This document shows, piece after piece, positions 29,070-31,409 of a DNA stretch of 64,000 nucleotides. Positions within the stretch are counted from its first letter, which is position 1. Each line of letters begins with the position of its first letter. Source of the stretch: a virus. The stretch spans positions 64,001 through 128,000 of the IMG/VR virus record IMGVR_UViG_3300035698_009252, one strand, 5' to 3'. The notes below the pieces were generated by a model. The model was not told where the DNA came from. It was given only the letters and a program-made list of their open reading frames with translations, and made no database searches. Both the position numbers and the translations under genes were made by a program.

Positions 29070-29146
29070 TGGTAGCGGGGACCAGATTTGAACTGGTGAC
29101 CTTCAGGTTATGAGCCTGACGAGCTACCAAACTGCTCTACCCCGCA
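29070..29146 (-). tRNA. tRNA-Met(CAT), initiator type
   Basis: Full cloverleaf, anticodon loop CTCATAA, unpaired 1:72 (U/U), encoded CCA. Confidence 0.92.
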
Positions 29147-29159
29147 AATCATACATAAA

Positions 29160-29435
29160 GCCGATACCAATGGGCACAAAGAGTTGCCGAGGGATATACC
29201 ATGATGGCCACATGGGCCTTTAGGAGTCCCTCTATACGGCTCCGTTTTAGGGGAGACGGCTACGATTGACCCCGTAGCCGAGGCTGCACATAATACCCAG
29301 TGCGGGGTCTCCGTTCCCCAGGACTTGGTAGTCCCCGGTTGGGATATTCGGATGGCTTCAGCGTCCGAACCTACGGACTCCACCAACCAGTGTTACTTTT
29401 CAGTAATGAAGTAACTCTTCATTGAAGCGTATCGC
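29160..29435 (-). ncRNA. Candidate Y-RNA-like structured RNA (~275 nt)
   Basis: The ends pair in three blocks (CGATAC/GTATCG, CAATG/CATTG, AAGAGTT/AACTCTT), with internal GGAGTCC/GGACTCC and hairpins. Adjacent to the Ro60 gene. Confidence 0.55.
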
Positions 29436-29495
29436 TTCTATTTTCTGTTTCAATTCAAAGAACAAACGACTGAAGCGTACCAGCCATCACAAACA

Positions 29496-29789
29496 CTATA
29501 CACCCGGACTCTCGTCCGGCGCAACAGAATTTTCATTTTTTTCATCTTCGTCTGGAATCCCTAATGTATTCCGCAGATATTCCTCGATTTCGTTAACGGT
29601 TGTCAACCGGCCAACATCTCCATCGGGTACAGGCTTTCCAAATTCTTCCTCGAATATCACCAACAATTCCACACAGTCCAGCTCATCGGCACCAAGGCTT
29701 GTTACGAGATGTGCATCATCTTCAATACCTTCAACCGGAATTCCCAGTTGCTCGGCCACGATAGACTTGATTCTGTCGCGAATGCTCAT
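29496..29789 (-). CDS. Acyl carrier protein-like protein lacking the phosphopantetheine Ser
   Basis: RIKSIVAEQLG...SLGADELDCVELL...EEEFG...TTV matches ACP except DSLD is DELD. Confidence 0.85.
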   Translation of the reverse strand: MSIRDRIKSIVAEQLGIPVEGIEDDAHLVTSLGADELDCVELLVIFEEEFGKPVPDGDVGRLTTVNEIEEYLRNTLGIPDEDEKNENSVAPDESPGV

Positions 29790-29796
29790 ACGACCT

Positions 29797-30027
29797 CCGT
29801 CATTCGGGTGAAGACACAATCCCTTACGGCCCCTTGTGTCTGAAAGTCCCCAAAAGGGGATGGGAAATCCAACCATGAGTTTAAGGGCTGCCTGTTCAGC
29901 ACTTACCGGGACTCTACCAACCCTTCCCGCCGATTCTCTCTACAGACTTTTTCAAACGTTGCGCGTACCTTCATCAGAGAATGTACCGTCATACTTGTCA
30001 TGTTCAGCGTAATCGGCCCGCTGACGG
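29797..30027 (-). ncRNA. Candidate structured RNA / leader upstream of the ACP-like gene
   Basis: Closing stem CCGTCA..CGGG/CCCG..TGACGG, hairpins GACACAA/TTGTGTC and TCCCC/GGGGA, no convincing ORF. Confidence 0.4.
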
Positions 30028-30035
30028 TTGAAAAA

Positions 30036-30211
30036 TGGTGGAGCGTACAGGAATTGAACCTGCGTCGGTTCCAGCCCTCCCGCCAACTACAGTCAAACCT
30101 GCACCGAGGAAAAAAATAAACCTCTGATTGGTACAGGACTCACTGCTTGGTACGAGACTTCGGAATCCCAAGTGACTTTCGTCACCGGCCTTTCCTCTCA
30201 GCCAACGCCCC
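30036..30211 (-). ncRNA. tRNA-Ala-like RNA with ~115-nt insert replacing the anticodon arm
   Basis: Acceptor GGGGCGT/ACGCTCC with G3:U70, A73, encoded CCA, D-arm-like TGGCTGAGAGGAAAGGC, T arm GCAGG-TTCAATT-CCTGT. Confidence 0.7.
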
Positions 30212-30285
30212 TTTCTCAGACTCTTGGCCAGCCTTTCGGCTGTTACCAGTTGACACCGCGTGGAGGTGGTCTGACATCGTCAACC

Positions 30286-30677
30286 TGGACGTGGGGAGAA
30301 TCGAACTCCCGTCCTGGACAGGCTCACCGTAAACCTCTACATGCTTATCCAGCTACTTTCTTTTGCCGCTGGCGGGCCGCACAACAGTCCTTCCCAGAGC
30401 ACCCCGTAATAAACGGTTCTGTTGTAGTACTCATTGGATGACATAGCCCGGCCACCCGCCGGGGTTCTACCTCTGTCGTTGCCGGACATCCCTTAGAGGT
30501 GTAGGGGAGCCGACACCGGGGCTGTTAAGCCGCCAGAGCGCGAGCGCCCTGGACTCCGGGGAATTGAAGAACGTTGCCGTTTACTTCAGTGTTGGAAGGC
30601 TTTTTAGGAGGCCAACCTTACCAACCTCCGCATGCAGTTAACGACTTGCATCTGCCAGTCGAAACCTTGTCACGCCC
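30286..30677 (-). ncRNA. ssrA: tmRNA, tag (A)GNVLQFPGVQGARALAA* at 30525-30578
   Basis: 5' GGGCGTG-ACAAGGTTTCGAC, 3' GGAC-GGGAG-TTCGATT-CTCCC-CACGTCC-A, G3:U70, tag ORF ending ALAA. CCA not encoded. Confidence 0.92.
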
Positions 30678-30733
30678 ATATTTTCAAAGAACGACCGTAG
30701 CATTCACCGTCTACCGCTACGAGTCAACATCAA

Positions 30734-30742
30734 ATTATACTC
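30734..30742 (-). promoter_or_regulatory. Sigma70-like -10 (GAGTATAAT) upstream of tmRNA
   Basis: Same G(A/T)GTATAAT element at 32467, 36325 and 42680, with a variant at 42235. Confidence 0.45.
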
Positions 30743-30778
30743 TATCCATTGCTCCAGGGAGCATCAATTCTGAAAAAA

Positions 30779-31232
30779 TTACTAGCAGGCCGGGTTTTCG
30801 CCGACACACTTACCTACCCCACCCTCCACGTAGAGCCATAACTTCAACGGGATAGGGTCATAGGCTTAAAGCTCAGTCCTAATCGTTTGCCCCACCTCCA
30901 ACCGGGAGGCTACGGGTTCTCTATTCCACCCAAGGAAGGCCATTTACATCTGCAAGACAGGCTTGCTCCTCTCTCGCGTCCGGGCTCTCACCGGCACCCC
31001 TGGACTTTGCAACCTACTTCTTTCGGTTCGGCGACCCGTTCGGATTCTAACCTACTAAGGGATTTTTGCGCACGGGGACTATTGGTGCGCGGGGTGTGTT
31101 ACGGCTCCAGCAACATCCAAGGTGTTCCGGTACCGGGTAGTCCGCAAGAAGGGGACAAGACCACATTCTCGCGCTTGCCTGGTGTGTCCGGGCTTGGATT
31201 CGCCTTCACCAGCGCCACACCGCTGCCAGTAA
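30779..31232 (-). ncRNA. Large (~450 nt) structured RNA of unknown class with tRNA-like ends
   Basis: 10-bp terminal stem TTACTGGCAG/CTGCTAGTAA, preceded at the 3' end by a 5-bp/7-nt-loop T-arm mimic GTCGG-CGAAAAC-CCGGC. No minus-strand ORF. Confidence 0.6.
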
Positions 31233-31247
31233 AATATCAATGAACAA

Positions 31248-31409
31248 ATCGAGCGACAGGGTTTTCACCTGCACGACGGGTATTTCATCTTTGCTTCAAG
31301 ACTGCGTTTCTTGATTTGGCTTTCGCTCGCCTCAAGGCATTCAGTCAACACCCCGTCTATTTCACCGCATCGCTGCTGGCAGTTTAGCGTCTAATTCCGC
31401 CACGCTCAA
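31248..31409 (-). ncRNA. tRNA-like RNA (~160 nt) with Leu-type D arm and large insert
   Basis: TTGAGCG/CGCTCGA acceptor, TGGCGGAATTAGACGC D arm, GCAGG-TGAAAAC-CCTGT T-arm variant. Confidence 0.6.

Follow-up and report, generated by a model that had tools for sequence, protein, structure and literature searches.

We identified an island of RNA genes of a large uncultured phage, directly upstream of the gene for a Ro60 protein, in a 64,000-nt stretch of viral DNA (hereafter the window) that corresponds to bases 64001–128000 of one 139.6-kb virus record, IMGVR_UViG_3300035698_009252 (CheckV completeness ∼43%). Read along the minus strand, the island comprises, in this order, an RNA of 161 nt (U1), an RNA of 448 nt (U2), a transfer-messenger RNA (tmRNA), a ribozyme of the hepatitis delta virus (HDV) type, an RNA of 176 nt (U4), the leader and the open reading frame (ORF) of an acyl carrier protein (ACP)-like protein, a Y RNA, a tRNA-Met, and a terminator, after which the Ro60 gene follows (table 1). 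The eight items listed in a preliminary description of this region are all present on the minus strand and in the order proposed; the 75 nt that it left blank between the tmRNA and U4 correspond to the HDV-like ribozyme, which it had overlooked. The best explanation overall, in which we have moderate confidence, is that this is an RNA-gene island with a ribozyme-cut tmRNA and that the tRNA-like frames shared by U1, U2, the tmRNA, and U4 reflect tRNA ancestry or mimicry. As far as we have checked, both the ribozyme-abutted full-length tmRNA and the three RNA families to which U1, U2, and U4 belong are undescribed.

The tmRNA is called at full length by Rfam (30677..30285; model positions 1–374) with a score well above the gathering score of 47. 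Its acceptor stem, GGGCGUG/CACGUCC, contains a G3·U70 pair and is followed by a discriminator A at position 30286, and its T arm reads GGGAG-UUCGAUU-CUCCC. The tag reading frame specifies GNVLQFPGVQGARALAA before the stop codon, and the corresponding frames of the tmRNAs of relatives specify GNVINLFGAERAPALAAA and GNVINFPGVTAPVAVAA. At the 3′ end, ...CACGUCC-A is followed by GGU instead of CCA; thus, CCA is not encoded, which is probably why ARAGORN did not call the tmRNA of the window. The tmRNAs of three relatives (L001, L002, and L005) end in ACCA, are called by ARAGORN, and have no ribozyme. Three other tmRNAs without an encoded CCA occur in this phage group, at L015 4464–4898 (...CC-AAAA), L017 303–730 (...CA-ACUC), and L025 2682–3032 (...CC-ACUA), and no ribozyme was detected behind any of these.

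In the window, the ribozyme begins directly after the tmRNA discriminator, with the predicted cut between A30286 and G30285. A search of 3.1 kb against Rfam matched RF02682 (37.8 bits, E = 1e-4) and RF00094 (29.2 bits). When a covariance model built from three copies was searched over 473 kb of related loci, it gave exactly three strong matches of 86–96 bits, namely the window, L045 95–163, and L036 1319–1388. The L045 copy likewise starts straight after a tmRNA discriminator, and the L036 copy starts straight after the discriminator of a CCA-less tRNA-Met. All 18 pairs of the pseudoknotted fold formed by P1, P2, P3, and P1.1 are present in all three copies (54 of 54 cells), five of them with compensatory changes; none of 500 shuffles matched the observed covariation, and slid controls paired at only 19–39%. 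The G1·U wobble that closes P1 (columns 1/38) and the C of J4/2 (column 59; position 30227 in the window) are invariant, and a P4 hairpin of 5–6 bp is present in each copy, with a different sequence in L036. The element is an HDV-like ribozyme with a nested double pseudoknot supported by covariation. A scan with a hand-written HDV descriptor was too unspecific to add anything useful. Ribozymes of another class, twister-P5, score above the Rfam threshold within the islands of two relatives (L003 7460–7536 and L005 6182–6270), the latter 45 nt after a U2 homolog.

We propose that the ribozyme would cut itself off co-transcriptionally, exactly after the tmRNA discriminator. Because the tmRNA has no encoded CCA and runs into a downstream RNA, this cut would free the tmRNA and leave it with a 2′,3′-cyclic phosphate, which could then be opened, and CCA added, by a phage CCA-adding enzyme with an HD domain or by a host enzyme. 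The preliminary description had invoked a CCA enzyme, and the phage does encode one, of class II (table 1), with homologs in three of the five related partial genomes. The HD domain of the CCA-adding enzyme of Escherichia coli has 2′,3′-cyclic phosphodiesterase activity, and by analogy we infer that the HD domain of the phage enzyme would suit a ribozyme-made end.

Ribozymes at the 3′ ends of phage RNAs have a precedent in the theta ribozymes, minimal HDV-like ribozymes without P4 that abut phage tRNAs at their 3′ end (Kienbeck et al. 2024, PMC10879173). Few of the tRNAs linked to them encode CCA, the phages that host them are enriched in CCA-adding enzymes, and tmRNA is not mentioned in that report (PMC10879173). 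The island shares with these systems an HDV-type fold whose G1 lies right after a tRNA-like acceptor end, an upstream gene without CCA, and a phage CCA-adding enzyme; the L036 ribozyme even follows a true tRNA-Met without CCA, whereas the upstream gene in the window and in L045 is a tmRNA. Unlike theta ribozymes, the ribozyme of the window has a P4, so it is not minimal; its upstream RNA is a full-length tmRNA, and it is followed by an RNA gene and an mRNA, so that the cut would also separate the products of an operon. The phage also differs in its source, environmental metagenomes, and in giving no indication of stop-codon recoding.

The RNA that follows the ribozyme, U4, has the shape of a whole tRNA. 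Folded alone, its minimum free energy (MFE) structure is a cloverleaf that is more stable than shuffled sequences (z = −3.28; about −3.3 in both known copies), with an acceptor stem of 7 bp (GGGGCGU/ACGCUCC) that includes G3·U70 and is followed by A73 and an encoded CCA, a D arm whose loop contains GG, a canonical T arm (GCAGG-UUCAAUU-CCUGU), and, between the stub described below and the T arm, a variable arm of about 100 nt. In the position of the anticodon arm, there is a 6-bp stub capped by GAAA, and there is no 7-nt anticodon loop. A full homolog was found by nhmmer at L009 983–1128 (E = 1.4e-7), in the same slot as in the window (tmRNA-U4-leader-ACP). Between these two copies, the D stem shows the changes G-C to A-U and U·G to C-G, and two pairs of the stub (5–6 bp) are changed on both sides while its GAAA loop is kept; the T stem has changed through G·U only, and the discriminator of the L009 copy is G73. 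A truncated relic of U4 lies behind the tmRNA of L001. Neither ARAGORN nor Rfam calls U4. We rejected an intron-bearing tRNA because the intron mode of ARAGORN gave inconsistent readings: Ser(UGA) when the genome was scanned, no call for the excised piece, and, for L009, Thr(GGU) with a poor stem. U4 is a real tRNA-shaped RNA that is not a decoding tRNA. The preliminary description of a 176-nt Ala-like RNA was accurate as to the existence of the unit and its tRNA-like ends; it erred in treating as a bare handle around a payload what is a whole tRNA body. Our best guess is that U4 would be an alanine-chargeable, non-decoding tRNA mimic that acts alongside the tmRNA, either together with the machinery for translation and rescue or upon it.

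U1 is also a tRNA-shaped RNA without an anticodon. Its acceptor-like stem of 7 bp, UUGAGCG/CGCUCGA, is accompanied by a D arm (GGCG-GAAUUAGA-CGCU) and by a hairpin (GCAGG-UGAAAAC-CCUGU); an anticodon loop and an encoded CCA are both missing. In its homolog, L036 702–819, the 20 nt of the D arm are identical, and the acceptor stem has been wholly replaced yet still pairs (GGGCCUUG/CAAGGCUC). U1 folds better than shuffled sequences (z = −2.25), and it is called by neither ARAGORN nor Rfam. The stem of its hairpin, GCAGG/CCUGU, is identical to the T stem of U4, which suggests a common origin, and the L036 homolog lies right behind a tmRNA, the slot that is held by U4 in the window. The signature of the tRNA elbow has been lost from U1, with a UGAAAAC loop and a D loop without GG.

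U2 is likely to be a real RNA gene. Its ends form a closing core of three helices, namely P1 with 7 bp (CUGGCAG/CUGCUAG), the long-range P2 with 5 bp, and a hairpin (GUCGG-CGAAAAC-CCGGC); in topology, this core equals the tRNA-like domain of a tmRNA. Homologs were identified with BLAST and with a frame scan at L003 6734–7198 (465 nt) and L005 5689–6137 (449 nt). The three copies can be aligned at their ends only, where all 17 pairs of the core are present in each (51 of 51 cells), with one compensatory and five one-sided changes; the hairpin loop follows the consensus YGARAAY (CGAAAAC in the window, UGAGAAU and CGAGAAU in the relatives). The copies share no reading frame and have no CCA, no Rfam match was found even at E ≤ 10 on 651 nt, and a scan of viral contigs for the 3′ motif of U2 returned only the related contigs already known. 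Two assignments were considered and rejected: RNase P RNA, which U2 loosely resembles (AAAGUCC; GAAAACCCGGCC) but for which Rfam gives no match and the CR-I-like stretch is absent in L003, and a second tmRNA, for which there is no shared tag frame and G3·U70 in only one of the three copies.

The preliminary description assigned a 7-bp acceptor stem and a T arm of 5 bp and 7 nt to U1, U2, the tmRNA, and U4; a 7-bp stem and a 5-bp/7-nt hairpin do occur in exactly those four places, but the loops of two of the hairpins, UGAAAAC in U1 and CGAAAAC in U2, are GNRA-like and are not T loops. If a canonical T loop (UUCRA) is required, only the tmRNA and U4 are left in the whole genome, and across 542 kb of the phage group the long framed RNAs are tmRNAs and U4 only. 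A relaxed scan for an acceptor, a D arm, and a hairpin was mostly noise (207 forward vs. 102 reverse matches), and it revealed the L005 copy of U2 and an RNA of 143 nt at L019 1861–2003 and L080 804–946. The latter lies directly upstream of a tmRNA and has a 7-bp terminal stem and a T arm of the UUCGAGU type. Only their retention in relatives makes the frames credible: in the tmRNA, U4, and U1, the tRNA-like ends are both real and conserved, and in U2 they are conserved. The proposal of diverse inserts also held, in that the interiors vary widely from one relative to another and the ends are kept. In the cmscan comparison with Rfam that the preliminary description had suggested, the tmRNA and the tRNA match known families, and U1, U2, and U4 match none, so that the units do not all belong to families already described. 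BLAST searches with the island and with the ribozyme against cultured phages gave only tRNA-Met matches or none, and pattern scans of viral contigs for an interior motif of U4, the ribozyme core, and the 5′ end of U4 gave only chance or coding matches.

The tRNA-like ends probably direct processing by RNase P and the addition of CCA. RNase P would make the 5′ ends of the tmRNA, U4, U1, and probably U2, since each of these offers a 12-bp stack of acceptor and hairpin. With such a tRNA-type maturation, the shared frame would represent tRNA ancestry, or mimicry that recruits the tRNA-maturation machinery of the host, and not a cassette for arbitrary cargo. The same logic applies to the YrlA RNA of Mycobacterium smegmatis, which is cut by RNase P and receives CCA.

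Several findings weigh against this explanation. [quoted passage not shown] U1 and U4 each have a single full homolog. For U2, the covariation falls short of significance (171 of 500 shuffles attain the observed value; slid controls pair at 27–42%), and the window copy folds no better than shuffled sequences (z = −0.40, as against −2.59 in L003). The ribozyme scores below the Rfam gathering scores of both families that it matches (37.8 vs. 44 for RF02682 and 29.2 vs. 50 for RF00094). The CCA-adding enzyme is also present in relatives whose tmRNA encodes CCA; it is, therefore, consistent with the ribozyme and not specific to it. Neither an RtcB gene nor an SmpB gene was found in the 140 kb of this record, which is only ∼43% complete.

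The view of the preliminary description, in which the frame of acceptor and T arm is a reusable handle for unrelated payloads or in which the framed RNAs are decoys that soak up tRNA-targeting defenses of the host, appears unlikely to us. It draws on the four frames in a row, on the strong divergence of the interiors between conserved ends, on the further framed RNAs in relatives (the 143-nt RNA of L019 and L080), and on the phage CCA-adding enzyme. However, U4 and U1 retain, besides a D arm, the stub of an anticodon arm and have a giant variable arm; they are, thus, whole tRNA bodies, the loops of U1 and U2 are GNRA-like, and the interiors match no known functional RNA in Rfam. Decoying of anticodon nucleases, specifically, fails because U1 and U4 have no anticodon loop that such enzymes could cut, and no defense or counter-defense gene was identified beside the framed RNAs.

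Another possibility is suggested by the tmRNAs of other phages, which are known from the mycobacteriophage Bxz1 group and Bacillus phage G and include the "TLD only" tmRNA of mycobacteriophage DS6A, in which TLD denotes the tRNA-like domain (Hudson, Lau and Williams 2014, PMC4131195). The word ribozyme occurs 0 times in the text of that paper (PMC4131195). The island resembles these cases in having a phage-borne tmRNA with a canonical tag, and the adjacent, tag-less, alanine-type U4 recalls the DS6A molecule. U4 could, accordingly, be a tag-less relative of the tRNA-like domain of tmRNA, an alanine acceptor that, by titrating SmpB, AlaRS, or EF-Tu, would tune or block trans-translation of the host, as proposed for DS6A. 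The alanine-type acceptor end and the missing anticodon of U4, its place right after the tmRNA, both in the window and in L009, the degenerate copy behind the L001 tmRNA, and the inhibition of tmRNA by TLD-like RNAs (PMC4131195) are in line with this idea, which we nevertheless regard as improbable. U4 is not a trimmed tmRNA: it has a full tRNA-type D arm, unlike the reduced D region of the TLD only type, and a GAAA-capped stub at the place that SmpB would take, as well as an extra arm of about 100 nt. The phage has a complete tmRNA with a canonical ...ALAA tag, so that blocking rescue would seem self-defeating. Moreover, the L009 copy has G73, and the acceptor is identical in both copies, which gives no test of selection on G3·U70.

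That U1, U2, and U4 are functionless, being either tRNA or tmRNA genes in decay or else tRNA genes broken up by an intron or a mobile insertion, is very improbable: their patchy spread among relatives, the truncated U4 relic in L001, a tmRNA split by an insertion in L003, and the reading of U4 as an intron-bearing tRNA by ARAGORN would agree with it, but helices are maintained by compensatory changes, the length of U2 is kept in three phages (448–465 nt), a conserved leader motif precedes U2, the GAAA tetraloop of the stub is conserved in both U4 copies, the intron calls of ARAGORN disagree (Ser(UGA), none, Thr(GGU)), and Rfam gives no group I intron match. In the L003 tmRNA gene, an insertion of about 420 nt (8437–8858) splits the T loop, and the 3′ piece, ...UCUCCCCGCGUCCACCA, resumes at 8859; the insertion holds a truncated LAGLIDADG-like ORF on the opposite strand (8766..8590) and is probably a degenerate intron.

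A leader motif, GTTC(T/A)TTGA(A/T)A, offers a view of how these RNAs may be expressed; in the window, its core, GTTC(T/A)TTGA, stands before U2, the tmRNA, and the Y RNA. Of 22 phage tmRNA genes, 9 have the motif starting 11–16 nt before the 5′ end of the tmRNA; its background frequency is 0.24 per kb. The motif is also present before U2 in L003 and L005 and before other tRNA-like RNAs, and it occurs on both sides of the 143-nt RNA of L019 and L080. It could serve as a promoter or start element, or else as a signal for processing. U4 has no leader motif and is joined to the tmRNA via the ribozyme, which argues for a single transcript of tmRNA, ribozyme, U4, and ACP. The transcription units of the minus strand would then be U1; U2; an operon of tmRNA, ribozyme, U4, leader, and ACP-like gene; and Y RNA with tRNA-Met and terminator, followed by Ro60.

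The Y-like RNA of the preliminary description, judged from its sequence and neighborhood, is a Y RNA of a large phage family. The Ro60 start lies ∼165 nt downstream of it, beyond the tRNA-Met and the terminator, and a Y RNA is next to Ro60 likewise in more than 30 related loci. In the window, the 5′ end reads GAUAC-GCUUCA-AUGAAGAG-UUACUUC and the 3′ end CUCUUUGU-GCCCAUUG-GUAUC, so that GAUAC pairs with GUAUC and AUGAAGAG with CUCUUUGU. The family comprises more than 50 RNAs that adjoin phage Ro60 genes, with the consensus 5′ GAYAC-GCUUCAG-N4-GGGWUACUUC ... CGAUUAUUGG-GURUC 3′. It includes short forms (∼60 nt) and long forms, and some members carry a GGUUCGAAUCC T arm as in YrlA. Among 15 short members, four of the five pairs of the terminal stem have three to six compensatory sequences. 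In the region of the 3′ strand that we compared with the GNCGAAN0-1G motif of YrlA, the family has CGAUUAUUGG and the window has GCCCAUUGG; a T arm is not evident in the window RNA, which also has no Rfam match.

Y RNAs next to Ro60 or Rsr have been reported as YrlA and YrlB (Chen et al. 2014, PMC4201824) and as Yrl1 and Yrl2 of Thermus phage phiLo (PMC12135203). The Y RNA of the window resembles them in its position just upstream of Ro60 and in its plan of terminal stem, internal loop, second stem, and variable module, and several of its relatives carry an internal tRNA-like T arm; it differs in being a 270-nt long form without an evident tRNA-like module. U1, U2, and U4, for their part, differ from Yrl RNAs in having open acceptor-type ends and not a Ro60-binding stem. 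Phage T4 has two small RNAs, RNAC and RNAD, that are processed along with its tRNAs. Also called species 1 and 2, these are stable RNAs whose function is not known and which are encoded among the phage tRNA genes (PMC9697503). By description only, the framed RNAs are comparable to them, but the T4 RNAs have no link to Ro60, tmRNA, or ribozymes.

Between U4 and the Y RNA, the preliminary description had proposed a structured region of 230 nt. This is the leader of the ACP-like gene, and it folds no better than shuffled sequences; only a 21-nt hairpin, CAGCGGGCCGATTACGCTGA, is common to it and L048. In the ACP-like protein, Glu replaces the phosphopantetheine Ser (LGADELD), and this Ser is missing from the ACP-like proteins of all relatives (DEL, DGL, DPL, DEM), where the gene always follows the tmRNA.

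Table 1. Features of the RNA island and associated genes (positions are those of the window)
Feature	Position	Strand	Evidence or remark
U1, 161-nt tRNA-derived RNA	31249..31409	−	Frame scan; homolog L036
Leader motif GTTCATTGA, before U2	31237..31245	−	
U2, 448-nt RNA	30782..31229	−	Homologs L003, L005
Leader motif GTTCTTTGA, beginning 14 nt before tmRNA 5′ end	30684..30692	−	
tmRNA	30286..30677	−	Rfam RF00023, 105.9 bits
tmRNA tag reading frame GNVLQFPGVQGARALAA + stop	30525..30578	−	Translation
HDV-like ribozyme (P1, P1.1, P2, P3, P4), self-cleavage predicted	30216..30285	−	RF02682 and own covariance model
U4, 176-nt tRNA-shaped RNA	30036..30211	−	MFE cloverleaf; homolog L009
Leader of ACP-like gene	29790..30035	−	z = −0.77
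ACP-like ORF	29496..29789	−	Pfam PP-binding, 6e-12
Leader motif before Y RNA	29455–29463	−	
Y RNA, 270-nt long form	29164..29433	−	Family membership, terminal-stem covariation
tRNA-Met(CAU)	29070..29146	−	ARAGORN and Rfam, 64.5 bits; CCA encoded
Intrinsic terminator hairpin, then U run	29035..29065	−	
TROVE/Ro60 protein gene	27160..28965	−	Pfam TROVE 5e-20, Ro60 vWA; island anchor
Phage class II CCA-adding enzyme	55816..57330	−	PolyA_pol head, RNA-binding and HD domains

The island is flanked by an ORF of 189 aa (32032..31463) and by the Ro60 gene (28965..27160), whose product has 164 relatives at E ≤ 1e-50. Nearly all long ORFs of the record are carried by the minus strand, and the GC skew runs the same way. 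From 31462 to 29790 there is no notable minus-strand ORF, and we rejected protein coding in the island because its mechanically called ORFs never matched Pfam below E = 0.1 (the sole listed match has E = 0.19). The tRNA-Met has initiator-like features in the Rfam alignment, a U1×U72 mismatch and A11:U24. Elsewhere in the window, a RecQ-type helicase on the minus strand (38872–41391) is broken up by Hint/intein-like segments (Pfam Hint_2, Hint, Intein_splicing), and a minus-strand topoisomerase IB gene (62490–63569) has a catalytic core of the eukaryotic type (Pfam Topoisom_I, 3.6e-31). A 96-nt tRNA-Leu(CAG) called by ARAGORN on the plus strand (38486–38581), opposite an ORF of 796 aa and without an Rfam call, is probably a false positive.

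We tentatively suggest, as a bolder idea in which we have low confidence, that U1, U2, U4, and the 143-nt RNA of L019 and L080 might be undescribed families of tRNA-framed phage RNAs, matured by RNase P, ribozymes, and the phage CCA-adding enzyme, that act together with Ro60, the Y RNA, and the tmRNA in an RNA-based module to take over or protect the translation apparatus of the host; U4 would then be an alanine-charged, non-decoding mimic that acts on the ribosome or as an aminoacyl donor. For this phage group, the leader motif flags RNA genes. Three RNA families that are absent from Rfam, two with anticodon-less tRNA shapes and one of ∼450 nt with a tmRNA-like closing junction, are all located at phage Ro60/Y RNA loci. 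Ribozyme-made 3′ ends, described for phage tRNAs, would here be extended to a full-length tmRNA, and among sister phages one ribozyme lineage serves either a tmRNA or a tRNA-Met. Combined with the HD-domain CCA-adding enzyme of the phage, the ribozyme would provide a complete maturation route, as proposed here, that is independent of the 3′ nucleases of the host. Should the tRNA-shaped RNAs prove to be charged or to bind the ribosome, they would represent a new route by which phages act on translation.

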